Positions 1,436 through 42,003 of a DNA stretch of 64,000 nucleotides are shown piece after piece. The stretch lies in assembly GCA_010093815.1 (NCBI GenBank), contig ML996578.1. One strand, given 5' to 3'. Position 1 is the first letter of the stretch. Each line of letters begins with the position of its first letter. The position numbers were made by a program, and so were the translations under genes. The notes beneath the pieces are model-generated. The model searched no databases, was not told the origin of the DNA, and saw only the letters and a program-made list of their open reading frames with translations. Origin of the DNA: Pseudovirgaria hyperparasitica (taxonomy: Eukaryota).

Positions 1436-2719
1436 ATGCCGCCCATCAAACCTCAGTCGTCATTGGTTCTCTTACCGCCGGCGCCAAGCTCCCCGACATA
1501 TGAGAACCTGAAGGCCGCTTACAACACGACATTACTCACTATTCTACGTGATGCATCTCTCAAACTTGATGGCACGGGCGGTGGAGCTGTGTTGGAGATA
1601 GCCCTGCCTTGTCCTCATTTGTATGGTCAAGAAGACGCGCCTCGCAGCACCCTGTACGAACCTACACAACGACTGCTCGCAAATCTGTATAAGCTGATCT
1701 GCGTCGTCTGCGCGAGGGGCTCAATCAACATAGAAGATGTAGATGGCGTCGACGTACGCTTGATTCTCGTAGCTTACCCCCGCAATGGCAAGCTACACCA
1801 TGCACAGTCAGGATCGCCCGAGGCAGACGCGGAGGGTCCAGTTGTCACTATTCAGACTTTAGCACGCAGTGGTCGGGTATGGAACATGGTATACGCCGTA
1901 GAGACTGAAGCAGGCGAGCAGATCCTACGGCATTTCACCACATTTCATCGCTCAGTGGCCCAGGTCACAAAAGTACGAGGAGGAATTGTGCAAGTGCTTC
2001 CGAAAGATGAACTCAACGCATCATCAGTGGCAGCATCAGATGGCCAGAAGAAGCGCAAGCATGCCTCGGTGGCCGTCGGAGGGACGTTCGATCATCTTCA
2101 TATTGGTCACAAGCTACTTCTGAGCATGACAGCCTTCATGGTCGATCGCGCAGCCGACACGCTAGACGCGACGGAGCAAGAACAGGATCGAACGATTATC
2201 ATTGGCATCACAGGAGACGAGTTGCTTCAAAACAAGAAATACGCCGAGCATCTGGAGAGTTGGTCTGCCCGCCAGCAATTCGTGGACGCGTACATGCGCT
2301 CCATCCTGGACTTCTCGGCGCATGGCCAGCACTTGATCAGAGTAGACGAGCGGACGGAACCTGGTCCGAACGGCCATGTTGTCCATGTTACATTGCCGTC
2401 TGGCCTGGTGCTTCAGTACGTGGAGATCTGGGATCCGTTTGGCCCGACGATCACGGACCAAGCGATCAGTGCGTTGGTGCTCTCAGGTGAGACCAGGCGA
2501 GGGGGAGCGGCAGTGAATTCGAAGCGGGAGGAGAAGGCGTGGCTTCCGCTCGAGGTGTTTGAGGTAGATGTACTCGACGCTGAAGAGGAATTTGCAGCAG
2601 AGGCAGCAGCAGCACATGGGTCGCCGAAGGGTGGACAAGACACGTTTCAGAGTAAGCTTAGTAGCACAGAGATTCGCAAGAAGTTGAGCGAGAAGGGTGC
2701 AGGAAGGAATAAGATGTAA
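1436..2719 (+). CDS. CAB4: Phosphopantetheine adenylyltransferase (CoA biosynthesis)
   Basis: Cytidylyltransferase-fold motifs VAVGGTFDHLHIGHKLLL, IGITGDELL, DPFGPTITD and KLSSTEIR. First ATG is at 1436. Confidence 0.88.
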   Translation: MPPIKPQSSLVLLPPAPSSPTYENLKAAYNTTLLTILRDASLKLDGTGGGAVLEIALPCPHLYGQEDAPRSTLYEPTQRLLANLYKLICVVCARGSINIEDVDGVDVRLILVAYPRNGKLHHAQSGSPEADAEGPVVTIQTLARSGRVWNMVYAVETEAGEQILRHFTTFHRSVAQVTKVRGGIVQVLPKDELNASSVAASDGQKKRKHASVAVGGTFDHLHIGHKLLLSMTAFMVDRAADTLDATEQEQDRTIIIGITGDELLQNKKYAEHLESWSARQQFVDAYMRSILDFSAHGQHLIRVDERTEPGPNGHVVHVTLPSGLVLQYVEIWDPFGPTITDQAISALVLSGETRRGGAAVNSKREEKAWLPLEVFEVDVLDAEEEFAAEAAAAHGSPKGGQDTFQSKLSSTEIRKKLSEKGAGRNKM

Positions 2720-4369
2720 TAGTAGAACATATACCTCGTACCATCTGCAGCATAAATCTAAATGACAGGCAGCCCTGGAGTGGGTCTGGAAGGCTTGGCC
2801 TGTTAAAAAATGGTGCACCTTACCGGGACTTTTTTTATCTGATATTCTCCGACATGCAGATATGCACGATGTATGTAAAGCAAAATGACGGGGCTGTAAG
2901 GTGATAATAAGAGCACAGATATGGACATTCGACATGAAAGACGATGCACGTTATATTCACGGGAGCAGAAGAAACATGTGGGTCTGATCCTTGTCAAAGA
3001 AAGTGTAGTTTCTACGTGGCGTACTGATGAGGGATAATTAGCATGTTTCGGCTTGACAGGTGTAGCCAGAGGCGTGTTGCGATCTATGTGGCTCGATACC
3101 ACTGAGCAGGATTGAGATGCTGCAATAAAAATGAGATGCTGCAGGGGGAGGGTACGGACAGGTAATGCATGCAAGGAGTTGCAAACGTCACCCGCATAGC
3201 GTGTTGTTCATGTGAGCTGCAAGTGAAGCTGCGGTGAGCGAAATGGATGCATGTGGTTTGCAAGAGGATTTCCATATCGGCGATCGGTGCGAGGAAGCAG
3301 ATGAAGAAGCCGTAAAGGCTAAAAGGGAATGCGGTCAAGCTATTCCGATGGTGGTGCGCTGTACGCTGTCCCCATGTGGAGAATGTAGTGTGTGTGTATG
3401 TACGTACTAAGACGAGCTAGTAAAGTCTAAGTTCTCCAACATGGTCCACCTTGCTGACTCCCGAGCCTTGTTTTGCATCATAGTCTGTGCAAAAAGACGG
3501 TTCGTCTCGACGGGACGGAGAAGAGCCGTGCCGTTGTCTGTCTCAATGGCTTCCGAGTTTCATTGAACGATCAACGACAACGTCTGTTCTTTCAATGATG
3601 CCAAGTGGCAGAAGACATGTATTGCAAACCAGGTAGCTGTGAACAGCGAAGCAGCGAGAGTACAGTATCAGCATGTCTCTTTTTGACTCTTTGAGTATTG
3701 TTGGACACATGCGGTGGGGTATTACTGCATGATACACGGCAGAAAAGTTTGATGGAAGCTTCTGGGCTGGTCGATTGTGCATATTTCTGCAGGCATGCAA
3801 GATCAAGTAATGAAGCAGTGCAGTGCAAGTGCAGTACAGTGCTTGGGATATTATGTATTTGGGTTCTGCAGCTGATCCGAAAAGTGCCGGTATGGACCGG
3901 GCCTTGCAACCGACGAGTAATTTTCTTCTTGTTTGCACGATTTTGCACGACTTTATCATGTCGACGACGCCCAGTACAGCAGCGGGTACATTTATTAATT
4001 GCATGATGGCAGCGATGGAAAATTGAGTGTGACGCCGGCGATATGGTCCGGAAAACGGCAAGACCAGTCCAGGACAGCTAGATTGAAGCCAGCTTGGGAC
4101 AGACGACAGACGACAGACTTGACATCCCAGCAACAGTTAGGTTCCTCGGCCTTGTGCAAGTCCCGGGCTCCTGGCGCACAAGGAGCCGAACATGTCAGGC
4201 GGCTCGCGTGGACTGATGATATGGCAAGCTTCGTCTAGCACGATCCATCCATGTAGTATTGAGCGAGACATGCATCAGCAGAGGATATGGAGGGATGGAG
4301 CGAGGGAGGAGGGGTCGCGTCGCAGCTTGATATCGCTGTTGGGGAGCTGTTGGAGCTGGGTATTGTGGT

Positions 4370-5472
4370 AGAGAGAGAGAGAGAGAGAGAGAGAGCAACT
4401 GGCGGCGGCGGCAGTGGACGCGCACGTCATGAGCGCTTATTGTGGCTGCATGATTGCCAGCGAAGCCTGCATGACAGGCATGAGGTAGTATCGTGTATTC
4501 TAGAGGAAGAGGAGGGAGGGTGTTGCTCGTTGTGGAGGTTAAGGTGGAGGTGGAGGTAAAGGATGAGGAGGAGGGTTGTGGTGGTTGGTGGTGGTTAGTG
4601 GTGGAGAGAGATGGAATTGAGGGAATGGGCGATTGGGATTGGTGGTAGAGGGGCTAGCAATTAGTCCATTTGGGACCAGTAAGGACCAGTAGGCAGCTTA
4701 ATAGCTTGACTAGCTAGTCGGCTAGTAGACATACCATACCATACCATACCATACATACATACAGTACCCATCCATACAGTACCCATACAGTCAGTACCCA
4801 TATATGGCTAGGGAGGGAGGTTTGTAGCAGAGGTGAGAGGTGTAGGTAATAGAGAGCGAGCAGTGAGAGGCAGTAGGCTGCTGGTCCATTTGGCGCGAGA
4901 CGGGCCTATACCCAGCTAATTCTGCCCCACCAACACCGCCAACTCTCGCTCTCGTTTCCCTCTCTGTCGCTCCCACCTGTCTTTTTATTGCCCTCTCTCC
5001 TCTCTCTCTCTCGACAGCCAACAGCCAACAGCTCCCCCCCCCCTCTTCATCCCCCCTCTGTTCCCCCTCATTGCTCGCCCCCTACACCCCCCTCCCCCCC
5101 TGTTTCCTCCCTCTGTGGTCCAAATAACTCTGCGCCTACACCCGCAGACCCGTTCCCGTTGTCTAAACACTGCTGAGGTGCATCAGATGTCGGTCATGTG
5201 ACTCGCTAGCAAGGGTGCAAAATCCGCTCTTAGCCAACCACAGCCTGCCCTGGCCTCTGCGCTGGTGCTCTGCCCTATCTCCACCACAATTGTCTTGGTG
5301 TTGTCGCCTCTATTACTCTACATAATACTACATCAATCAGATGAACCTGATCACTCATGTCTCCATCCATTTCTAGCTGACACCCACCACCCCCTTTCTC
5401 TCACTTCTCTCACTCTTTTCACACACGTACACACACGCACACACACACACACATACACATACATACATACAC
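4370..5472. repeat. Microsatellite cluster: (GA)n 4370-4395, (CATAC)n/(CATA)n about 4730-4762, C-rich tract about 5030-5100, (CA)-rich 5420-5472
   Basis: Simple repeats visible directly in the long intergenic region upstream of the 5847 gene. Confidence 0.85.
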
Positions 5473-27721: not shown

Positions 27722-29125
27722 TCACCTCGGCGAATCATTCACTGCACTCTTCTCGTCCGTTTCATGATGACTCCGGACGAGGTCGTCCTGGTGTCTCTTA
27801 AACTGGTCTTCGTCGGTCATGGTAGGCGTACTTTGCTGGCTCTCGCGCAAGTGTTGTGGGTAAGGGTGGAAGTCCTTTGAGCTGGTACTGAAAGTCGAGA
27901 CTACAGGTGTATAGAATACACCATTGCTTGCGGAGTCGTCCCGGTGCTCTGCTTGTGTGGGTGTCTTTGCTTCCGGGCCTGCCGATATGGGACTCAGAAG
28001 CGTGTCCTGAGCGGTAACCTGGCCGTTCATGAGACCATTCCATCCACCTTCGATATCCCGGAGCAGCCGAACATATTCTTCAGGGACAAGACCGCTTTCC
28101 CCACTCTTCGGGTCCTGAGCTACCAGCCAGCCTTGTCCATGTCGGTAGGACACTAATATAACTTGACCTTCGATCAAAGGTAGCTCGTTATCATTCTCGC
28201 GTGCGAAGTCGAAAAGAGCCACAGCCTTGCCGGCCATTTCTTCGTCTGGGTCTGCAATCGTGAATTGATAGTCTCGAGAGTACCGGTTCTCGTCCCGAAT
28301 ATCAGCATTGGATGATGTGTCCGACATGTCCTCGTCATCTGAGCCGTATGCTCTCCTGGGAAGCGTTTTCGGAAAGTGAGAATCGCGCCGGACCGTCGCA
28401 GAATCTAGCGTCTGTTCCATGTCTTCTGCCAATTGTGTTGCGATTTCTCTAGGTCCATGTACCTGGTTGTCGAGTTCGTTGGCAAAGTATACGTCTTCGC
28501 CATCCCCATTGGTGCCCAAATGTGATCCTCGGCGGCCGCGATCATCGAGACCCCGTAGCGACCCTACGCGGTCGAAATCGACGAGATTCGATTTGTGCTT
28601 CTTATGTATCCTTGAACTCACCACTGGGCTTTGTATATCTTCGTCTTCACTCCATGGCGGCCCATCTTGGCCGTTGTCGAATGAGGTTTGCGGCAGCCGC
28701 TCACCAGTCTCCAAAGGAGGAATAGGCCATCCACCTCTTAACGATTCGTAAGACAGCTGTGGATCCGAGAGCCGACGGTTGAATTCACTTGCTGGTGTAG
28801 ATATCTCAGATGGACCATCTGGTAAGGGGCCATAAAAGAGAGGATGGGTAGGTCCATACGCGAAATCCCTTACCAACGTGTATGGTAGACTTGAATGGAA
28901 GACTGGAAACACTGTCGACTGTGGTCTTGAGCCTCTTTGAGGATTCGAAGATGTCGAGTACGTAGACAACCGGTTCTTGGCGTAGGAGGATGCTCTCTGT
29001 AGACGTGCTGACGAATTCGTGGTGACGATAGGTGGTAGTGGTGGGATGCCTGAGTTGGAAGGGGTCGAGCGGGCCGATGGTGAGGATGTTGGGTTCGTGT
29101 TTGTGTTCGACATGACAGCGGCCAT
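27722..29125 (-). CDS. NBP2: SH3 adaptor protein, Nbp2-like (HOG pathway negative regulator in yeast)
   Basis: SH3 domain KAVALFDFARENDNELPLIEGQVILVSYRHGQGWLVAQDPKSGESGLVPEEYV and an N-terminal VRDFAY motif. Confidence 0.82.
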   Translation of the reverse strand: MAAVMSNTNTNPTSSPSARSTPSNSGIPPLPPIVTTNSSARLQRASSYAKNRLSTYSTSSNPQRGSRPQSTVFPVFHSSLPYTLVRDFAYGPTHPLFYGPLPDGPSEISTPASEFNRRLSDPQLSYESLRGGWPIPPLETGERLPQTSFDNGQDGPPWSEDEDIQSPVVSSRIHKKHKSNLVDFDRVGSLRGLDDRGRRGSHLGTNGDGEDVYFANELDNQVHGPREIATQLAEDMEQTLDSATVRRDSHFPKTLPRRAYGSDDEDMSDTSSNADIRDENRYSRDYQFTIADPDEEMAGKAVALFDFARENDNELPLIEGQVILVSYRHGQGWLVAQDPKSGESGLVPEEYVRLLRDIEGGWNGLMNGQVTAQDTLLSPISAGPEAKTPTQAEHRDDSASNGVFYTPVVSTFSTSSKDFHPYPQHLRESQQSTPTMTDEDQFKRHQDDLVRSHHETDEKSAVNDSPR

Positions 29126-30087
29126 GCTTGAGGTGATGCGAAGGTTACTAAGACGTTACGGCAATGATCAATTTCAGCGTCTTCCTAGTACTGCGGACTG
29201 TGGAAGTATGATTGTACGCGCGCCTTATACCTTCACGGCTCCTTAGGCCAGTGTGGAGAGGTATAATATAAAGGCGAGAGTCGTCTTGTTGAGGTCGACG
29301 CTATTTGCCAGCAGACAGCGTATAGTGCAAAAGTGAAGTCTAAGAATCCCCAAAGGACCGTAAATGTCGAAAAGACTGAGCAACAAATGTTTATACGAAA
29401 GCGAAGTAATGAACCACCAATTAGTGCAGCGCAAGCGCGTACAGAGCCCCACGGAGCCTTACGAGTGGCTCGAAACTCGCAGAGACAGGGCTGTGACTTG
29501 TGTGTTTATGTTCGGTTTCTCGAATAGACGCCCAAGGAGGCAGCGTGGAGGGGATGATTCGAAGAAACGACGTCGGCGCTAAGTGAGAGGAGGATGTTTT
29601 AAGGACGAGGTTGAAGATAGGTAAGCGGGCGAGCGATGGCGGGGGAAAGGCTAGGCGATGGCAGTGGGCACTAAGTAGGCAGCGCAGTCGCGAATGACTG
29701 GAAATGGCGGGAGAAGAGGAGGTAGCCAATGTGCGTTTCGGCGAGGTTGTGTAGGTGGTATAGGTATAGGTGGTGGAGGTGGTGGAGGTAGGTTACAGAT
29801 TACAAGCAGGTAGTGTCGTGGGTAGTGGTTCTTGTGGAATGTTTTCTGTACGGAGGGCTATTAATAGGTCAGCACCAGGCGGCCGGCTGGACCGTTACTC
29901 GAGACGAAGAACGAAGACAAGAGTGTGTGCGCGCGCGCAAAAGGGAACGATATGAGAATAAGAATGATAATAATAATGGAGAAGGGCGTACGATGAGAGG
30001 AGAGATACCAGTAACAAGTAAAAAGGACCCAAGTCAGTAGGTGGTAATGAGTAAGTAGTCGGCAAGGAAACGGGGCGGCGTCGCGAG

Positions 30088-30228
30088 ACAGAGCAGGGCA
30101 GAGCAGGGCAGAGCAGGGCACAGCACAGGACAGACACAAGCGCAGACGCAGAACAGACAGAACAGACACACCACACACACACACACGCACACACACATAT
30201 GCACACACACACGCACACGCACACACGC
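30088..30228. repeat. (CAGAGCAGGG)n and (CA)-rich microsatellites
   Basis: Visible directly. They generate the spurious VCVC-type ORFs in the track. Confidence 0.85.
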
Positions 30229-30821
30229 AGGACCTGGTGGTGTAAAATGTTCATCAGGCGAGCGAGTCGAAGTGTTCTGTTTCTTCCAAGGTTGTTTCAG
30301 AAAGACGCTAACATGTTCGATTCCCCACCCGCGCGAGTCCTTGGGATTCGCTGCCTAGACCCGCCACTGCTTCAATCAAATTGCTGCCCCGCGATCCCGG
30401 CCAACCATAACTCGCCGTCTCTGCCGTTTTCCACTCCAGTCCTGCACGTCAACACTACTACTGTACTATTATTTATTAAACATCACTGCCCTCGCCCGTT
30501 GCCAACGTGGAAAGACTTGCGGCATTGTCAGTCCAAGCTCTGGCGCAAGTGGAGCCTCTCTAGCTATGCACGTTGGCTCATTCTCGGTCGCATACTTTGC
30601 AGGGGAAGAGAGAGAGAGAGCAAGAAGAAAACCAGATGAATTACAGATCGCCCACTCTTCTTCGTCGGAACACTGTTAATTCTCACACCTCTGATAGATA
30701 GTGCGAAAAGAGAGGCTTCTGTGAGACTGTACGGCATCCATCTCCAGCAGGGCGGTGAGGGAGCTCTCCACCTTGCCACCGACCATTGGGGAGGTTTCAC
30801 GTGAGGGGATACTGCAGTACC

Positions 30822-30953
30822 TGTGGGATTCCTATTAGGTAATCCCCGTTACTCAGATCTTATTCAGCGTTAGGCTGGTATATATAGCACTTAGATAGAC
30901 TTAGTAGACACGTTAATCAATTTTACCACGTCTAATTTACCAAAGTTCCCACA
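30822..30953 (+). repeat. 5' LTR (132 bp)
   Basis: TGTGGGA...TCCCACA termini; 127 of 132 positions identical to 39646-39777. Confidence 0.97.
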
Positions 30954-30955
30954 TC

Positions 30956-30962
30956 TAGTAGC
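30956..30962 (+). other. Putative primer-binding site
   Basis: TAGTAGC 2 nt after the LTR. Reversing one TG>TA change gives TGGTAGC, the start of the tRNA-iMet-type PBS of Ty1/Ty3. Confidence 0.45.
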
Positions 30963-31394
30963 TGAAATCTGGTTTTTATCCTCCTAGGGAGGCTATCGCT
31001 TTAGCGATACCTCCTAAGGGGTAGTTATCTTACCCCTTATATAAGGGAACTCGTTAAAAACATTTAATGCTCACGATAAACTATATAACTTACTAGATAA
31101 TAATAAGAACGAACCTAGAGTCTAACACGAAAACCCTTCTCTAAAGCGATACATCCTAATTTTAGAGATGGAAATTACGGTAATAAAGCTTAACGACTAA
31201 ATTCGATAGTCCTAGCGGATAGTAATATATTATAAAATAAGCTAAAAGAGTCACGTAAGAAAAATATATATTAACTCCCCCTATGTCCGCGATAGATATC
31301 CTAGCTACTCGTTAATATAAATTAACGCCGTAATTCTAACTCGGAAGATAATTATTACCCTAGGAAACGCCTTCCTTACCTAAGCTATATTAAG

Positions 31395-32672
31395 ATGTCT
31401 TCCTTATAGAACCCTAATTATAATAGCGATGTCTCTATAGGAGGAGCTAATACTCTCTAAAATATAGGACGCGCCCGTAATGAGCCGTTAAACACTATTA
31501 ACGCGCTTACCGCGCTCCTTAATACCAACCCGGCTATAAGGGACCTTACTAGAGACGCTCGTACGTTAGTACTAATTAATATATATACTAATCGACTCGA
31601 GTCATAAATAAGGAACGACTATGTTACTCGAGAAGAACTAGTAAGAGACTTTAATAACCTCCTCCTTAATAACCCTAACTAGGCGAGCCTAGCTATACTA
31701 GTAAGAAGAGGCCGTATCCTACTCCGAGCACCCGATATATACTTAGAAGAAACTAGAGATAACGCCTACGAAGAATAGTGCTTATTAATCTAGGAATAGA
31801 TTTATACTATAGAATTAGTAGAGCGCTAGGAAGCTATACCTAAGTTCGAGAAACTATAAATCTACGGGATATATATATTAAAGTATATCCGCACCCTTTA
31901 GCGTAGCCTTATAGAAGCCCGTGGACGTAATAACCTAGGTAGTCCTTAAATACTAGACGGCTTCCTAGACGTTATACGTTAAATATATATCTCTACTAAT
32001 CGCCCCGAATAGCGTAGAAAGGAATAGGAGAACCTTACTTAATATCGTTTTAGATCTACCTCGAAGCTTATTAACGCTATCGTTAAAAAGGCACGACTCC
32101 TACGACCTATACCTTCTAAATATAAGATATAGCGTAGAATTCTAGGCGCCCTTAAGTCTAAGGTTTAACGTAAGATCGAAAAGTAGCCCTTTCCTCCTAT
32201 AGGATTAGGAGAGTAGTACCTATAGATGAAGAGGCTAGAGGAAGCCTTATATACCTACTCTAGAAACGAATACTATAGGCGGGAGGCTACTTATTATATT
32301 AATACTATATATTACTAAGACGAAGAGGAGGAACCGGAAGAATTCGAACCTTCTAAGGACTTATACATATGCGAAGATAAATTAGGCGACTACTCTAGAG
32401 ACAAGGGTAAGCTCCACGCGTTCGTGAAGCGTTAATAGAGTAACCGAGGCCGCGGTAGAGGCTAGAACCGAGGCCGAGGCTATAGTAAATACTAAGGGGG
32501 CTCGTTAAGAGCTCTTAACGAAACCCAAGAATACTTTAACTATAAGAAGTTAGGATATATCTCGAGATTCTACCCCGAAAATCCGACTCTAGGTAAGCTA
32601 GCCTACGTTACTACCGAGGACGACGCGTTAAGCGTCTTTAACGAAGAGGCCCTAAAAGCTAGTCGCCCGTAG
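31395..32672 (+). pseudogene. gag: gag (RIP-mutated) with CCHC zinc knuckle
   Basis: ATG 31395 is in frame with tactttaactataagaagttaggatatatctcgagattctac (about 32532-32573), which de-RIPs to CFNCKKLGHISRFC. An RG-rich stretch precedes it. Confidence 0.8.
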
Positions 32673-35600
32673 TAGATATAGAAGACACCACGAGCGACTA
32701 TAAGAGCTTCTATACTAATAATACTAATGAAAATAAGATAAATATATAGGACTACGAACATATTAACGCGCTTTATAAATCGCTAGAGAGTGCCTACTAT
32801 TATTAAGAGGAGTTAACGGACGTTATTAACGATCGCCTCTATTAACTAAACTCCATTAGTAGATAGTTACTAGAACTTAAGGCTTACGTAGGGGAAGTCC
32901 ACCCCTAGAGGGTTTTAGTCCTTATTGACTATGGGGCTAATAGAACATATACGTTAACGAAGGTTACTAGGCGTCTAAAGCTAGTGCCGTAACCTGCCCC
33001 CGTAATACGTGTTAAGCTTCCGTTAGGAGCCCTAATAATAAGTCGAGAAGTTATAAAAATCCCTCTTTATATAGAAAGCTTTACTTACGAAGTCTCCGCG
33101 AGAGTACTCGACCTTAAGGGCTACGATCTAATTCTAGGTTATAAATGGCTTTACGAATAGGATCCCGATATATCGTAGAGATCCTATTCCCTAGTAATTA
33201 GGAGGCTAGTAGCTCGAGGAAGGACTAAGGAGTATCTCCTTAAGGGGATTCCCGCGTTAATCGATATTAACTTATAAGGAGAATAAGTACTAAACGTCCT
33301 TACCGCTAGCTAAGCACGGAAATAATATCTAAATGGCTATAAGTAAGGTGTAATATGGTTTATTAGGAAAGACAACCCTCCTATACTATAGGCACCCGAC
33401 CTAATACTATAAACGGTTTTAACGGAGTACTAGGACGTCTTTAAAGAGAAGCTACCTAAAGGACTACTACCTTCGAGATAATAGGACTATAAGATAGATA
33501 TAGGAGACGGCCGACCCGTTAATAACGCCGCCTACCGTCTCTCCCTAGAATAAATCGCTAAATAGTAGAAGTAGATATAGGAGCTTATCGAGCGAGGGCT
33601 TATCTAAGAATTAGAAAGTGCCTAGGGTAGCCTAGTACTTTTCGTACCCAAACCCGGAGGCAAATAGCGAATATATATTAATTATTAAGTACTTAATACA
33701 CTTACGTGTAAGGATACGACCCCTCTTCCGCGTATAGACGAATGCCTACGTGCCTTCGGCTAGTTAATAGTATTTAGTAAGATGGACTTAACCTTAGGGT
33801 TTTAGTAAGTACGAGTAGCCGACGAAGACGTCCCTAAGACCGCCTTTAATACGATTCACGGTAAATACGAGTTTAAGGTAATACCGTTCGGTCTATTAAA
33901 CGCACCTACCATATTCTAAAAGATAATAAATCGAGTCCTTTAACCCCTACTATATAAATCCGTGGTTATATACCTTAACGATATTATTATCTTTTCCGAA
34001 GATATAGAAGAACACGCTAGAGTACTATTAAAAGTACTTACTCTACTCCGTAAATACCGCTTACTTACTAATCCGGAGAAATATAGTTTTAGCTAGACCG
34101 AAGTTAACTTCTATAGATACCACGTCTTATAAGGATAACTTCGCCCGATAAAGGATAAGATTAAGGTAATTCGCGAATGGCTAGAGCCCACGAACGTTAG
34201 CGAAGTCCGATAGTTCCTCGGCCTAGCGAATTATTATTAGAGGTATATCCGGGGATTCGCGAGTATCGCCGTACCCCTAATAGACCTCCTTAAGGAAGTA
34301 GACCCTCTTATCTATAAATAGAAATATAGGTCTATTCGATAGACGCTATTAACGGCGTTTACCTTTAAGACTCTAAAGAATGCCCTATGTTCCGAACCGG
34401 TTCTAGCTTAACCTAATAAGACTAAGCCCTTCTATATTAAAACGGATATAAGTAACTATGCGATCGGTATAGTAATCTACTAGGAGGATCCTAGTAAGTA
34501 GTATTAGCCAATCGCGTTTAACGGACGAAAGCTTAATAGCGCCGAGCTTAACTATCCGGTTCATGAAAAAGAACTCCTTACTATTAAACACGCCCTACGC
34601 ACTTAGGGATACCTACTAGAAACAAAGAAGACGACGATCCTAACCGATTACCATAGCCTATAGTTCCTTAAGTCTATAAAGGAATAAGGAGACCGTGTAG
34701 ATAGATAGATCGATGAGTTCGGAAGCTTCGATCTCGATATAAAATATCACCTAGAATCTAAGGCGGTAGTACCTAACGCCATTAGTAGAAGGCTAGACTT
34801 CTAAGGCGAGATCTCCGCGATACTATTAAGTAAAGTTAACGAACACGTTCTTATAGCCTAAATCATCGAGTTCCTAAAAGGAGCCGACCCGATAGAGTAT
34901 ATACTAAAAGTCTCTCCTAAAATCCTATCTCGACTACGCCTTGACGCCGAGAGTAAACTTTAATATAAGCTATGGGATTTTAATAATAGTTAAGAAGATT
35001 TAGCGGAAAATTCAGCACCTTATATCCCGGAATAATACCGTAAGTCGCTAGTAGAAACTATATATTAATAATTCGGTTACTTTATATGGCCCGGACTACT
35101 AGGAGCCCTAGAAAAATAAGGCTAGTAGTTTAAAATGAAGAAAGACGTAGAGGTAGTCGCTTATAATTACCGTTAATGCTAATTAGCGTAACGAGTACTA
35201 CCAAATCCATAACACGAGAGATAGTTTTATAGGGTTACACGCCGAGCACCCTTTAAAGAATAGGGTATCAACTTTATAGGCGTACTCCCCACTACGTATA
35301 ACGGTAATAGTTAGGTGATAATAGTAATTAACTACGTAACGGGATGGTCTATTATATAGGCAGTCCCTGAGGCGACCGTAGAGTCCGTCGCGAGGTTCAT
35401 TTACGAATAAATCTTTATAGATTTTAGACCCCCCGCCGCACTAACCTTAGATAACGGTTAATAGTTCCTATTAAGAGTGGTTGGCGTACTACTACGCATC
35501 CTTAAGACGGAATATAAACTTACCACGCCTTATTACCCTCGTATAAACGGAAAGGTCGAACGCCTTAATAGAACCTTAGGAGGCATCCTTACCTATATAT

Positions 35601-36997
35601 ATATAGGCGAACTAGTAACCAACTAGGACATATACTTACCAGCCGCTGTTTTCGCCATAAGGATCCGACGACATAGGAGTATAGGAGTTAGTCTATATTA
35701 TCTAGTATATAGATAGTACCCTAACTTACTAGGGAACATTCCTAGAGAAAAGGATAAGTTAATATCCTTTAATAAACTTATTAAGCGAGTTAAGAAAGTG
35801 TAACACGCTAGGACGCTAGCGCTAAATAAACTACTTATGGAAGCCGCTCGCCGAGACCTTATAGATCCGACTCGGCTTAAACCTAAAGACTAGGCGCGAC
35901 TACCTATCGGTCAAATCGTTTTACTAAAGAATGAATAGAAAACGAAGTTTAAAACGAACTACTTAGATCCCTATAAGGTTTATATATAACACCCCTTAGG
36001 TATATACGCGCTAGAAACACCTAACGGACGTATCCTACGATACCTTATATATAGTAATAGACTAATTACGGTAAGAGGTATTAATAAGCTAGATAACTTC
36101 TAGACGAGATAGGAGATTAACTTATAAATATCTAAGGAAATTAGGAATTAAGTAGTACCTTACTTACTAGACATCGAGAAGGTTTTAGAGAAAGAGAAAC
36201 CTACCCTATATTAGACGACTCTATCCTCCCTTCCTAAGAAGGAGTAGAACCGGCTATAGTAGCTACGGAGTTAATAAGAGTTAACGTACGAGGGCGTACG
36301 TTCGTTCGTAGTAGGGGAGAGCTCGATAGACATAGATATTACACGTTAAATTAGGCTTACTAATATAAGAAATCGATATAAACGGAGAGCTACCGTAACT
36401 ACGTTAATCGTACTAGTGCTAAACGTTATTAACGAACTAAGAAATATACTAGAAGAATAACACGAGAATAGCGGAGCGATATAACCGCCGATAATAAACA
36501 TTAAAGAGAGCTATGATGCTCCAAGGGTAGAGGAAGCCTAAACGATAACTAAGAAACCGATAGATAACCCGTTAAATAAGATTAATACGATAGAGGAAGC
36601 CACGATAGAAGTAAGACAGAAAGAATTACCTAAAGAAATAAGCTTAGGAGACGAGTTTAATGATACACGAATGGACTTAGATAAGGATATCCAACTAGAA
36701 TATAAGAATCCTATAAGTATAGATATAGACTCGGATATAGAAGAAGTGTTAAAGGAGGTTAACGAAGTAAATAAACAACCCCTAACCGACTCGGACGTCC
36801 CTATACGGGATCTTATAGAAAGCGAACCTTACACGCGAAAGAGAAAGTAATCCTATATAGATGAACGTAGTAGAGAAACCTAAGCGGCTATAGCTAGCGC
36901 GTTAAGATAAGTTAATAGATTAGAGGGAGAGAGGTACTCTCTACGGAAAAAGATATTACCTTTAAAGCTATTATAGGAAAGCTTAGAATATAACTAA
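32669..36997 (+). pseudogene. pol: pol (protease, RT, RNase H, integrase, long C-terminal tail), RIP-mutated
   Basis: Motifs checked in one frame: LID.GA 32921, YLDD-equivalent 33971, TTPYHP.TNGKVER 35522, RYSLR 36932. Also seen: PLPRIDE about 33722, KTAF, (M)PFGL.NAP, NYPVHEKELL about 34550. Ends are approximate. Confidence 0.93.
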
Positions 36998-37266
36998 CTT
37001 TAGTCTTTCCCTAATTATCTCCTTTATATATAGTACTACTAACCCCCCATTTACTTATTTAGAATATATACGGCCGTTAAAGAAGATTAACGAGCCTTAG
37101 AAATTACTAGGAGGTTAAAGAAAGAAGACGTGGACTTATAATGACATTATATAAGTCTAAAATCGCTATTTAAGAACCGCAAGACTAAATAGAGATAAAA
37201 GAAAGCCGTTAACGCCTTTTGACGCTTAATAAGATGGGGTATTATTATAAAATAGAAGCCGCCTAC

Positions 37267-39262
37267 TTAGTCCTAGACCTTACGAGTAGAATTTAGTGGA
37301 TTCTTCATAAATTATACTAATACCTTCTCGCCCTCCTCGGGCATGCCATTATTAATTAAGAACTTATATAGTAGCCCTTAAGGCGTGCGGCTAACCTCGC
37401 TAAACGCGTTTATTAGACGACTAAACCAATCTTTAACGGCTTCGTTAAGCGGAAGTCCTTCATCTTTAAGGTCCTATATAGGATAAATAGAGATGATACT
37501 CGGGTTAGGAGGTATAGTATTATTAAAGCTAGGAACGAGGACCTCCGGACCGCCGTAATACATCTATTCTATTATAGCTATAACCTTTTAATTAGCTAGA
37601 GATTACACGAGATATAGATCTAACTTACGAGCGAAGGACTAGCCTTAGAGTTTAACCTAGTCTCCTTAAGATCTAATAACTTCTTTTAACGAAGTTTAGT
37701 AGCCGAATACTTTCTAGTGGCCTTAGTTATCTCTATAAATAAAGACTACTCGGTATGTTAGCGCTTTTTAATAATATTACGCTCGCCACGGTATACTATA
37801 GGAACGCGTTAAACCTATTAAAAGCCTTTAACGATATAAAGGAATAACTTATAACGCGATATACTATAGAATTTCCCATTCCCTTAGTGGAAATAGTTTA
37901 AATAGGTACCTTTAAATAGTAGGAACCCGTTAGGAAAAAGCTACATATACTCCCTAAAGATGCCTTTACTAGTAGAATAAGAACTATAGGCGCTCTCGCT
38001 AAAGTGCTAGTATATACCGCGAGCTATTATACCTAGGATAGCCGGAATAGTATAGGGATATAACCTATCTAGGCGTTTCGAAGGATCCCGAAAGATTCCT
38101 CCTCCTACCACGATATTCTAAGAATAATAGTAGTTACTAAACTTATCCGTTATATAGAACGGAAGTAGATTCTTCGGAATTAAGGCGTGCTAACCGCTGG
38201 CGTACGCCTTAATAAGGCCATCGATAAATTCCTTATAGAGCGCTCCGTTAATAGGAGGGTCCGAGAATAGCCACCCTAGGATAAGTTAGCTAACCGTTAA
38301 AGATAATTAACGAGATAAGGACTTACTCTAGTAAGCTAACCACTATATAAACTTAATAGACTTCCCCGAAAAGAAGTAGTAATTAGATTAAATTCAGAGG
38401 CCTATGCGACCTACTACTTCGATCTCGGCATCGCCATAGCTATTAAGTTTATTTACCATAGGTTACGCTATCGTACTAACCTTACGAGAAGCTATAGACC
38501 CCTTTCACTTCACGGGAGTCTTCTTAACGACCTTATTAGGACTTTTAAGGTCTATAATAGCCAGCTTAGAAGTTATAGAGCGAGTTTTAGGGCTGTTAAA
38601 CACCTTTAATAGAGTCCTTACGGCACTACGGGTCTTTACTAGAGTCCTAGGTATTCTAGGACGAGAGCCTAGATAAGAATTAGGAACTAGAATCTTAATA
38701 TAAGACTTAGCGACTTACCTTTCTTAGTTACCTTAGGAGTAACTATATCGCCGAGCTCGTTAACTTCGATTAACGTATTACTATTAAGGTCTAATAACCT
38801 AGAGCTTTCCCTATCTTTATTTTTAGGATAGAAAATATTATTAGAGTCTTCCGATAGGTTCGCGAACCGACTAGCTTTTATAGGGGCTTCGAAGGGCTCG
38901 TTAATAGCTATTACTAATCCTTAAGAGGCCGGAGCCTTAACTTTAGCCTTAGAGACCTTAGGTTTAAGGCTCTAACCGCCTTCTTCGATTAACTAAGCTA
39001 AAGCTTTATCTTCTAGGTCTAGTTCTTAAAAGAATAGCGAACCCTAAGGCCCGTTTAGATATAGATAGCCGTAGGCTATCTTTAAGTAACTCTTACGAAC
39101 TATATAGTTAACCTATACTTAAGGAATAAGGTAACTTAACCTACTATCTAGAGCACCTTCATTCGCCGCTAACACTTTATTAAGCGATAACTAGTTAGGA
39201 TTTCCGTATAGAGGACCTAAGAAAGCACGACGAAGATCCTTATTTATAACTATATCCGCTAT
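37267..39262 (-). pseudogene. Antisense five-exon accessory gene inside the retrotransposon (about 597 codons; DUF3716-like Cys motif), RIP-mutated
   Basis: Exons 39262-38719, 38668-38327, 38275-37853, 37795-37629, 37584-37267. Intron phases 1,1,1,0 join into one frame. Internal stops are TAA/TAG (RIP of CAA/CAG/TGG) plus two TGA (consistent with CGA). Confidence 0.8.
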
Positions 39263-39301
39263 AGGAAGTTTAAGTTAGAAGGGAAAAAGATAAAGTTAAA
39301 G

Positions 39302-39311
39302 TTTATATATA
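39302..39311 (-). promoter_or_regulatory. TATA-like box for the antisense gene
   Basis: TATATATAAA about 40 nt upstream of the inferred start. RIP also creates TA runs, so this is weak evidence. Confidence 0.4.
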
Positions 39312-39632
39312 TGAAATTATAGTATTAATCGGAGTAATTTCTAAGTTCACAGGAGTTTCAGCTATGTTATTAGATATTATTAAAAGGATTTAGCGCTGGA
39401 AAAAACTAAGGAAAAGGTCGAATTAGTTAAGAAATATAAGGTTAAAGGACGGTAGAATATAGGAATAGTAAAGGTAACTATTTAGCACTAAAATAAGCTC
39501 GGACTACTACCCTTACGCGACGTGTCGCTAATACGGCCTAGCGCTAAAGAGATTTCATACGCCTACCTCCCTATATTATATATTCTAACTCCGTTAATCG
39601 TCTTTAACGGCCTCGTAGAAGCTTATATAATT

Positions 39633-39645
39633 AGGAGGGGGAAGA
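39633..39645 (+). other. Polypurine tract
   Basis: AGGAGGGGGAAGA directly abutting the 3' LTR. Confidence 0.9.
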
Positions 39646-39777
39646 TGTGGGATTCCTATTAGGTAATCCCCGTTACTTAGATCTTATTTAGCGTTAGGCT
39701 AGTATATATAGCACTTAGATAGACTTAGTAGACACGTCAATCAATTTTGCCACGTCTAATTTACCAAAGTTCCCACA
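39646..39777 (+). repeat. 3' LTR (132 bp)
   Basis: Direct repeat of 30822-30953. Confidence 0.97.
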
Positions 39778-40120
39778 TACCCAACCATGCTGCCAGGTCC
39801 ACCTAACTGAAGCGCGCAACTCCTACAGAACACAGACACACGAAAGGTCTTTCGTTGCATCTCTTCACTTTCCCTTCCAAGAGTTCCTTCATGTAGTCGT
39901 TTTGGTTGCAACCATTCAGCCAAAGATTGACCCATCTTTGCAGCCTGACGTCATATGGTGACTTAGGAAGATACCGTGCCGTCTTGCACAATTTCTCGCT
40001 TCAAATTTCATCATATTTTCTGTCTGTCCTTTCAGTAACGATCGGCTCACCACCTCACGTGCTTCGAATTCCATAGTCAATCCTTGTGGAACAGTATTCT
40101 CGAGTTAGAAGCCAAGCATC

Positions 40121-42003
40121 ATGCCGACCTTGGCAGTGGTTAACTTCAATATCGTCTGTGCGACGTTAGGTGGCTTCATCACTGCCTTCGGACTTGTTTC
40201 CTATCTGCTCAAAGAGAAATACTACCTATCCGAAGCTCGTACGTACTAGCTTCCGTGCCCAAGCCCTTGCTGATCCGTGAAGTCATATCTACGCTTGCGG
40301 GCGTAGTCTTTGGACCACATGCGGCAAACTTCCTCAGGCCGCTTGATTATGCCTTGGGTGACGAAGAGGCATTGGGTACAATCACCTTGTATTTCACAAG
40401 GCTAGTCCTCGGTGTGCAGCTCGTGCTTGCTGGCGTTCAGCTTCCAAGCAGATATCTAATACTTGAATGGAGAAGTCTTGGTTTACTTATCGGTCCTGGT
40501 ATGACCGGGATGTGGGTCATGACAAGCCTTCTCGTATGGGCAATGGTCCCTCATCTAAGCTTCTTACATGCTCTCGCTGTTGCTGCATGTGTCACTCCGA
40601 CTGACCCTGTATTATCAAACTCCATTGTCAAAGGTAAGTTCGCGGACAAGAACATACCAAAAGAGCTGCAGAAGATCATAACGGCCGAGTCGGGTGCAAA
40701 TGATGGACTCGGCTATCCTTTTCTCTTCCTTCCCCTCTATCTTATCAAGTACATTGGGGAGGGTGGTGCAGGTCAAAGTGGAGGAGCCGGTAAGGCTATA
40801 GGCTACTGGTTTGGTGAAACCTGGGCCTACACCATCATTCTTAGTATCGTCTATGGCGGCGTGGTCGGGTGGATCGCGAAAGAGCTCTTGCACTGGGCCG
40901 AAGAGAGGAAATTTGTGGATAAAGAAAGCTTCCTGGTGTTCGCTATCACCCTAGCTGTAAGTTCTGCCTATCAGTGCAATCTTCTCTTCTAACCTATGGT
41001 AGCTGTTCATAGTTGGTACTGTGGGTATGATAGGCAGTGACGACGTACTTGCCTGCTTTATTGCTGGAAATACGTTCACATGGGAGTAGGAAATGATCAT
41101 GATCTGACTATGAGTCTCAGACTGACAATCGATAGTGACTGGTTCCGCCTCGAGACATTGGACGATTCATTCCAACCGACCATTGACATGCTTCTAAATG
41201 TCACAGTCTTTGTGTGGTTTGGCGCCATCTGCCCTTGGCATGAGTTTGCCCACAACAATGTGATCCCTATATACAGGCTCATCTTTCTGGGCATCCTGAT
41301 TATGCTGCTCCGCCGACTACCAGTCATATTCGCCCTGCACAAGAAGATACATCAGATTGAAGACTTCCGCCACGCCTTGTTCGTTGGATTCTTCGGACCC
41401 ATCGGCGTCTCCGCCATCTTCTATCTTTATGTCAGCTTGGAATTTCTAAGAGGTATTACGGTTGATGGTGAGCAGCGTGCAGATGCCCGGAAGCTTGCTG
41501 AAGTAATGTATGTTGTAATTTGGTTTGCAACAATCTGCAGCATCGTAGGTCTACAATCATCGAATATTCGCTTGACTGCTGACAACAACCAGGTCGTCCA
41601 TGGTTTAAGTATACCTGTGGGGAAACTAGGCTTTTGGATCCCACGCACGTTGTCCAATGCTGTGACCTCTGCAAGTGGTAGCGATACACCATTTCGCACC
41701 CGTGGTACCGCTCTTGAGAATACTGATCTGAGTGCGCGCGCACGTCGCTCCGGTAACACAACGCCAACAGGTGATAGCAGTCTTCCTCGATCTCTATATC
41801 GCATTGGGGGATCCATCATCCGTAGCAAACCAGGACAACATGGCCCCCCGAGGGATGCCTTAGCTTCACAGGATCGAATCACTGTTCCTCCCACTACAAT
41901 CGACGGCGGTATTGCTCCGAGAGCTATTCGCTTCCCAGATGATGTCGGAGATTCGCAATTGCCAGAGATCGCGCGCGCACGAAGCTCTACCAGGAGCAGC
42001 TGA
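40121..42003 (+). CDS. NHA1: Plasma-membrane Na+(K+)/H+ antiporter; introns 40239-40282, 40957-41002, 41086-41135, 41545-41592
   Basis: FGLVSYLLKEKYYLSEA, ACVTPTDPVLS, AESGANDGLGYPF, GSDDVLACFIAG, LRRLP, GFFGPIGVSA, SIVVHGLSIP. It may be a paralogue within the Nha1/Sod2 family. Confidence 0.85.

Follow-up and report, generated by a model that had tools for sequence, protein, structure and literature searches.

A probable antisense gene, destroyed by repeat-induced point mutation, between pol and the 3′ LTR of a Ty3/Gypsy element in Pseudovirgaria hyperparasitica

Antisense accessory genes are already known from retrotransposons with long terminal repeats (LTRs), those of fungi included. The candidate described here belongs to a Ty3/Gypsy element of Pseudovirgaria hyperparasitica, which occupies positions 30822-39777 of a 64,000-nt stretch of contig ML996578.1 (GCA_010093815.1), called the window below. 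In the segment between pol and the 3′ LTR, called the tail, the minus strand at 37267-39262 probably held an intron-bearing gene of about 600 codons, integral to this Ty3/Gypsy family and since destroyed by repeat-induced point mutation (RIP).

The closest described system is fungal. In the Boty-like Ty3/Gypsy elements of Botrytis cinerea and Sclerotinia sclerotiorum an antisense gene, brtn, lies between pol and the 3′ LTR, as related in excerpts of later papers (Zhao et al., 2011, via PMC7264820, PMC8365987, PMC4227169, PMC5987419). A transcript resembling BRTN has been reported from Monilinia, according to an excerpt of one of these (PMC5987419), and in an excerpt of another Boty is described as chromodomain-bearing (PMC4227169). 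An earlier note on the present DNA, made from the sequence alone, had implied that no fungal example was characterised; on these secondhand accounts, the description of brtn in 2011 contradicts it. As far as the excerpts describe it, brtn is like the present gene in being an extra gene of an ascomycete Ty3/Gypsy element, in its place between pol and the 3′ LTR, in its antisense orientation and in having a product without known function. The difference is that Boty, on the same accounts, has a chromodomain, and none was found in the present element. No match to BRTN was obtained with exons 2-4 or exon 5 of the present gene, with a RIP-damaged query, exon 1 unsearched and the presence of BRTN in the collections unconfirmed. 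A literature search, thin in subscription journals, found no antisense open reading frame (ORF) in a fungal Gypsy element besides brtn.

Plant Ty3/Gypsy elements also carry antisense ORFs between pol and the 3′ LTR, among them Retand/Tat with TRP28, Grande of maize and RIRE2 of rice (excerpts of PMC7264820 and PMC11963269). They resemble the present case in position, in orientation and in the length of the region between pol and the 3′ LTR, given there as 2.9-6.6 kb in Retand vs. 2.7 kb here. In these excerpts the plant ORFs are present in most copies of each family, a role in the nucleus or in DNA binding is suspected though unproven, and the descriptions mention no introns (PMC7264820, PMC11963269). 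The present element differs in being fungal and in having a tail without a TRP28 (PF04195) match and without tandem-repeat arrays; the only array found, of 26 nt, lies inside the LTR. The search for Transposase_28 (PF04195) gave no match with the exon peptides at E up to 10 or in six frames at E up to 0.1.

The HBZ gene of HTLV-1, an animal retrovirus, encodes a bZIP protein, is transcribed from the 3′ LTR and has one intron. Like the present gene it occupies the 3′ end of a reverse-transcribing element in antisense orientation, and it is spliced, with introns invisible in the genomic RNA. HBZ differs in that its product is a bZIP protein, whereas the present gene has no bZIP or other domain match and is known from sequence alone. 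An excerpt of one of the plant papers mentions HBZ among antisense genes (PMC11963269). Beside these systems, the present case would be set apart by its non-chromodomain lineage, its apparent length, its several introns and the lack of a detectable relation to TRP28.

The minus-strand reading frame and its introns

The earlier note had proposed a minus-strand frame in five exons of 544 + 342 + 423 + 167 + 318 nt, and its coordinates, exon lengths and junction sequences are borne out; the sum is 1794 nt, or 598 codons. In the window copy this gene is dead. It begins with ATA, which is one TpG>TpA change away from ATG, and it contains 28 in-frame stops (15 TAG, 11 TAA, 2 TGA), vs. 58 and 85 in the other joined frames. 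It is true, as had been claimed, that every stop can be explained by a C>T or G>A transition, but this discriminates nothing because every stop codon lies one transition from a sense codon. Considered as an aORF-3R (sensu PMC7264820), the gene lies inside the element, between pol (ending at ~36850) and the 3′ LTR (from 39646), and by statistical composition evidence alone its coding strand is opposite to that of gag-pol; with 28 stops and ATA for ATG the window copy does not present an open, transcribed frame.

Stops are nevertheless too few for chance. The best minus-strand path through the tail with one frame switch has 38 stops, vs. 50.3 ± 4.6 in 300 simulations (P = 0.003), a deficit about as far under expectation as that of the true pol frame. 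The share of stops in the joined frame, 4.7% compared with 6.5% in pol, is close to the share expected from losing Gln and Trp codons, and the amino-acid make-up also parallels that of RIPed pol, with 0% Gln, 0% Cys and few His, Met and Trp. The product of RIP, TpA, is self-complementary, and for this reason a real gene and its mirror frame are equally poor in stops: 6.5% of codons are stops in the sense frame of pol and 5.7% in its mirror frame.

The strand is indicated by base composition at the first and second codon positions. In the joined minus-strand frame G1, T1, A2 and C2 are 0.25, 0.24, 0.34 and 0.20; the values are 0.26, 0.21, 0.37 and 0.17 in the sense frame of pol and 0.17, 0.37, 0.21 and 0.26 in its mirror. 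The antisense frame is thus sense-like, not mirror-like. Its three-base periodicity is strong (chi2 48, p = 1e-8), and the neighbouring spacers, 36851-37266 and 39312-39645, show none. A statistic independent of the earlier gene model, D = (G1 + A2) − (T1 + C2), was computed on the minimum-stop path found without supervision. The minus strand gave D = 0.142 and the plus strand D = 0.017, vs. 0.011 ± 0.035 in simulations (maximum 0.092, n = 200), none of which reached the observed D and none of which had so few stops. The reference values are 0.17-0.24 for the sense frames of gag and pol and −0.11 to −0.19 for their mirror frames.

A frame scorer was built from codon positions 1-2 of gag and pol; on cross-validation it chose the true pol frame in 27/31 and 28/30 windows. 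It places the claimed frame first of six in four of the five exons and second in exon 3. Sliding along the tail, it recovers the order of frames at the claimed places, and its signal ends near 39250 and at ~37250-37270, matching the claimed start and stop. The parts of the gene, in the order in which they would be transcribed, are as follows.

39263-39632, minus strand: region upstream of the antisense start, putative promoter and 5′ untranslated region, with a TATA-like run at ~39300-39311
38719-39262, minus strand: exon 1, 181 codons, 8 stops, first codon ATA; claimed frame best of six (11.7 nats), G1 0.31, periodicity p = 0.00017
38669-38718, minus strand: intron-like segment 1, GTAAGT..CTAAT..TAG, 50 nt, shifts the frame; strict motif, with a frame change found here without supervision
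38327-38668, minus strand: exon 2, 114 codons, start of a basic stretch; claimed frame best of six with a slightly negative score (−1.8)
38276-38326, minus strand: intron-like segment 2, GTAAGT..GCTAAC..TAG, 51 nt, in frame; strict motif, 2 stops in 17 codons
37853-38275, minus strand: exon 3, 141 codons, lowest stop density (3.6%); composition signal weak, claimed frame second of six
37796-37852, minus strand: intron-like segment 3, ATAAGT..TAG, 57 nt, in frame, weakest of the four; loose pattern only, 3 stops in 19 codons
37629-37795, minus strand: exon 4, 55 codons; claimed frame best of six (2.7 nats)
37585-37628, minus strand: intron-like segment 4, GTAAGT..GCTAAT..AAG, 44 nt, alternative in-phase acceptor at 37564; strict motif at 37628, frame change here
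37267-37584, minus strand: exon 5, 106 codons, 6 stops, putative stop region; claimed frame best of six (10.6 nats; 6.0 per 60 codons), G1 0.27, T1 0.19

Upstream of the gene, 39312-39645 lacks periodicity (p = 0.37) and 39300-39499 has a GC content of 27.5%.

The intron-like segments were assessed with a strict fungal pattern, GTAAGT followed by CTAAY and then YAG within 75 nt. Three such motifs occur on the minus strand of the tail, vs. a mean of 0.217 expected (2000 simulations, P(≥3) = 0.002). The pattern is absent from the plus strands of the tail and of gag-pol, and the minus strand of gag-pol has one example, of 36 nt only. All three tail motifs coincide with claimed donors and two sit at frame changes. 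At 38718-38669 an open run of 77 codons gives way to one of 69 codons in a different frame, the latter (38714-38508) covering part of exon 2, and at ~37600-37650 the unsupervised scan changes frame, from q%3=2 to q%3=0. Only introns 1 and 4 change the frame, because the lengths of introns 2 and 3 are multiples of 3. The donor of intron 3 is ATAAGT and its branch site is poor. Introns 1, 2 and 4 are likely, and intron 3 is possible. Of the four introns of the earlier note, then, all have the sequences described, three have the motif and two (1 and 4) the frame change; the third is weak and the acceptor of the fourth ambiguous.

Could the plus strand instead encode a sense, env-like third ORF, the minus-strand frames being its stop-poor mirror? 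Mirror frames in this element are as stop-poor as true ones, the plus strand has open runs of 78-89 codons at 38340-38673, and a plus frame scores best across 37750-38350. Yet D on the best plus-strand path, 0.017, is that of the simulations and far from the values of true sense frames, exons 1 and 5 read in the mirror frame have scores of −20.8 and −12.3 and T-rich first positions, and the plus strand has no intron-like motif. Such a sense ORF is very improbable.

The host element and the place of the tail

The element appears in the window as an AT-rich block at ~30900-39900, with 36-41% GC compared with ~50% in the surrounding DNA. This block is a single LTR retrotransposon. It has LTRs with TG..CA ends, flanked by a perfect 4-bp target-site duplication, and a pol with the domain order protease, reverse transcriptase, RNase H, integrase. 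Its parts on either side of the antisense gene are listed below.

30818-30821: left copy of the target-site duplication, TACC, read directly and identical to 39778-39781
30822-30953, plus strand: 5′ LTR, 132 nt, TG...CA, a direct repeat with 96% identity to the 3′ LTR; ends read directly
31100-32800, plus strand: probable gag region, approximate bounds, heavily RIPed; stops 6.9%, the fewest among plus frames, with purine-rich first codon positions
32909-36850, plus strand: pol, with protease, reverse transcriptase (33644-34111), RNase H (34361-34714) and integrase, from Pfam matches and polyprotein alignment; C-terminal end approximate
36851-37266: spacer from the end of pol to the 3′ end of the antisense gene; periodicity chi2 2.1, p = 0.91, no frame that scores as coding
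39633-39645, plus strand: polypurine tract AGGAGGGGGAAGA adjoining the 3′ LTR, read directly
39646-39777, plus strand: 3′ LTR, 132 nt, from repeat comparison and direct reading
39778-39781: right copy of the target-site duplication, TACC, read directly

The two LTRs differ at 5 sites, every one a transition. With stops read as X, pol matched RVP_2, RVT_1 (1.5e-23) and RT_RNaseH_2 (3e-25), in order and in a single plus frame. The translation of 33644-36190 aligns across 95-100% of its length with fungal and metagenomic Gypsy polyproteins (top match 48% identity, E 9e-257), which carry PF00078, PF17917/19, PF17921 and PF00665, integrase families included. The gag region had no Pfam match in the six-frame scan (E up to 0.1); the same scan found no chromodomain, and the nearest listed pol relatives are also without PF00385. 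The pol frame fades at ~36850, and ~2.7-2.8 kb of tail remain before the 3′ LTR. Within 36400-36850, on the plus strand, the pol frame extends ~650 nt beyond the integrase core; this extension is acidic, has 3 stops in 150 codons and no Pfam match, and its antisense mirror frame is equally poor in stops.

Host genes flank the element. Upstream lies an ORF with an SH3 domain (27725-29155, minus strand), and an ORF of the Na+/H+ exchanger family (40144-40989, plus strand) begins ~370 nt past the 3′ LTR. RIP has not spread to either host flank.

The RIP indices of the tail match those of the coding regions. TpA/ApT is 1.89 in the tail vs. 1.76-1.80 in gag-pol, and 1.76-1.89 overall across gag, pol, the spacer and the claimed region; (CpA+TpG)/(ApC+GpT) is 0.20 in the tail vs. 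0.18-0.23 in gag-pol. In the un-RIPed flanks the two indices are 0.65-0.73 and 1.16-1.29. RIP targets duplicated DNA, and the tail therefore belonged to the duplicated unit. Together with the bounds of the insertion, set by TACC on both sides, this agrees with the earlier claim that the region is RIPed as heavily as pol and is part of the repeated unit.

Other copies point the same way. Contigs from four public runs (X1-X4) with the same species label were compared with 30000-40600 at 80% likeness. In X1 and X2, diverged contigs, 80-99% alike, span every bin of the element, those of the tail included. The depth of X1 contigs, a sum over contigs and not a copy number, is 2609-4855 in the tail, 2579-4611 in pol and 305-315 in the flanks, and X1 contigs differ by 947 transitions vs. 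69 transversions, counted by place. Among 12 of the 13 insertions and deletions, those listed, none falls in the frame-shifting intron-like segments, so the frame changes are not seen as private indels of the window copy; within the claimed gene just one of those listed occurs, a compensating pair at 39019-39023.

In X3, which like X4 comes from a second strain, a 9033-nt contig has ~5x the flank depth, 755 vs. ~150-160 in single-copy flanks, and follows the 3′ half of pol and, in patches, the tail in the same order (34967-37182 onward); its counterparts in X4, X1 and X2 likewise run colinear with pol and patchily with the tail. The 9033-nt contig appears to be a less mutated copy, since it differs from the window copy mainly by T>C and A>G, and it was possibly active recently in this other strain of the same species label. 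Between the two copies the tail is more diverged than pol.

The contigs also show several joints. Those of X1, X3 and X4 join 31603 to 33745 with 3 other letters between, a deletion derivative present in both strains that lacks 2.1 kb (the end of gag, the protease and the start of the reverse transcriptase). Contigs of X1 and X2 link the LTRs directly (30887/39719), skipping 8831 nt, and others pass from the 3′ LTR back to the 5′ LTR (39725/30910). Such LTR-LTR joints could reflect solo-LTR-like or LTR-to-LTR forms at other places in the genome, or else an assembly that ran through the repeat.

The greater divergence of the tail also bears on the thought that the minus-strand gene is foreign cargo, a host gene captured in antisense or a nested independent transposon that does not serve the element. 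By established logic a captured gene would retain its introns only if it lay antisense; the present gene lies between the arms of a 21-nt inverted repeat with 95% complementarity (37072-37092 / 39592-39612), and AT skew shifts at ~37100-37300. This repeat, however, consists of two copies of a palindromic motif, described below, that occurs 15 times across the element, in gag and pol as well; the repeat lacks both colinearity with the neighbouring repeat I3 and a target duplication alongside. No transposase or other domain was found in six frames, no host-type homologue was found, and the tail shows no likeness to the remainder of the window (tblastx, best E 0.88). The tail also has the same element-specific excess of TAA-N6-TTA as gag and pol, and contigs from many diverged copies span it. 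Foreign cargo is therefore an unlikely account. A nested DNA transposon in particular was rejected: its supposed termini are a dispersed palindrome, with no target duplication beside them and no transposase domain. The nested transposon with its own termini that the earlier note had named as a ground for refutation was accordingly not found.

Homologues and the weight of the evidence

The six-frame Pfam scan (E up to 0.1) returned only pol families, and the exon peptides gave no match even at E up to 10. A phmmer search of exons 2-4 against 1.84 billion representatives, in which exon 1 was not included, gave a single, repeat-inflated match. This match (E 1.2e-5) is to a 3205-aa protein with 10 identical ubiquitin-hydrolase-like His-box repeats, and one repeat by itself has E 0.016 (BLASTP), so it was set aside as score inflation. 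Exon 5 with the sequence downstream found no homologue in the large protein collection. In the Protein Data Bank (PDB) nothing fell below E = 0.05, and nothing below E 0.47 for exon 1 and the exon-5 region. A PDB match to yeast Swi1 (residues 56-182, E 0.057, 15.9 bits) crosses translated intron 2; it was judged to be chance because nothing similar reached E 1e-3 in the large search. Compared by tblastx with the rest of the window, the tail had a best E of 0.88. Metagenome contigs yielded no locus, either through the antisense peptide or through the best pol relative (P0006), and no viral contig with P0006 was found.

An alignment of pol located four distant Gypsy loci with 29-39% identity, which are uninformative on the antisense gene. 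In two of these (L003 and L001) the longest minus-strand ORF downstream of pol is 166 aa, and in L003 pol is followed by a sense ORF of 671 aa. No un-RIPed relative of this pol above 48% identity is present in the protein collections, so that the failure to find antisense homologues carries little weight. The product has no feature beyond two basic stretches, at residues ~161-250 and 441-500 with 9-12 Lys + Arg per 40 residues; they are weakened as a clue because RIP turns Glu codons into Lys codons.

Several points weigh against an antisense gene. The claim is statistical and comes from a single degraded copy. None of the Pfam, phmmer and PDB searches produced a homologue or a domain. Because the mirror of a coding frame is equally stop-poor, stop poverty shows that one strand coded, not which. 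The codon scores of exons 2-4 are weak or ambiguous, exon 3 being outscored by a plus frame, itself stop-rich, and parts of exons 3 and 5 have longer open runs in other frames. GTAAGT by itself is not enriched, with 3 copies in the 2.7 kb of the tail minus strand vs. 8 in 4 kb of the pol minus strand. Introns 2 and 3 have motifs and stop clusters as their only support, with no frame change, and the acceptor of intron 4 is uncertain: AAG at 44 nt, a first YAG at 51 nt that is out of phase, and TAG at 65 nt in phase. The tail of the 9033-nt X3/X4 contig aligns in patches only, with 38850-39557 uncovered at 80% likeness; it was not used as evidence.

These points bear most directly on the view that the tail is a long non-coding 3′ region and the minus-strand gene a pattern picked out of RIPed, TA-rich DNA. 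Such a view accords with the lack of homologue and domain, with a stop poverty that is modest in absolute terms and is reached by mirror frames without coding on that strand, with the competing frames in exon 3 and parts of exon 5, and with the 12 copies of GTAAGT on the minus strand of the whole element. What it leaves unaccounted for is that neither the unsupervised D nor the stop count was matched in 200 simulations each, that the unsupervised tests recover these frames where they were claimed, that the strict intron motif is enriched solely on the minus strand of the tail, and that periodicity is found in the claimed coding sequence and not in the spacers flanking it. A non-coding tail is accordingly rather unlikely. 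The accessory gene that the earlier note had placed in this element retains its minus-strand coding signal and its position inside the insertion; it has gained neither homologue nor domain.

Proposed expression, a dyad motif and significance

If 37267-39262 was such an antisense gene, its own promoter may have lain in the 384 nt separating its start from the 3′ LTR, or in the reversed LTR, and between two and four introns would have been removed from its transcript. Read on the plus strand, as in the genomic RNA, the introns would be CT..AC and invisible to the spliceosome, so that reverse transcription would copy them back; this blindness would explain how they survived retrotransposition. 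By analogy with other antisense ORFs, and from the two basic stretches, the product was most likely nuclear and acted on nucleic acid. That it modulated the transcription or silencing of the element itself, for example, would be a guess.

A dyad, CGTTAA-N6-TTAACG, is scattered through the element, with 8 exact and 7 one-mismatch copies making 15 sites at 31052-39609, all inside it. The exact copies, from a motif scan, are at the following positions.

31310, 31486, 32503, 32626, 37075, 38295, 38758, 39592: exact copies of the dyad

Exact pairs occur only at the 6-nt spacer and not at spacers of 0-5 or 7-14; 0.06 exact copies are expected under a fifth-order Markov model that preserves hexamer frequencies. 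The core, TAA-N6-TTA, is found 58 times vs. 21 ± 4.6 expected, ~40 above expectation, with an excess in gag, pol and tail alike; neither the host DNA of the window nor the four distant un-RIPed Gypsy loci show it. Of the cores in pol, 16/25 are in one codon phase. The exact dyads at 37075 and 39592 bracket the antisense gene. The copy at 37207 has the right arm TTGACG, perhaps the unmutated form, and judged from this half-unmutated copy the ancestral dyad was perhaps CGTCAA-N6-TTGACG. Nothing on the dyad CGTTAA-N6-TTAACG was found in the literature.

It is a long shot that the antisense gene encoded a dimeric nucleic-acid-binding protein targeting these sites and that intact copies in other strains still express it from a spliced antisense transcript. 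If true, the element would carry both a factor and an array of its binding sites, which could, for example, shield its DNA or cDNA from silencing or regulate both promoters.

For the more general reading, that of an antisense gene integral to the family, the significance would lie in comparison. The gene would be distinguished by its ~600 codons, by introns kept through antisense logic and by its place in a non-chromodomain Gypsy lineage. As a second fungal case after brtn, and if unrelated to it, the gene would suggest that such genes arise repeatedly in Ty3/Gypsy elements. The antisense accessory genes of plant LTR elements are known yet unexplained, and fungi are readily transformed; given an intact copy, this element would provide a tractable system.

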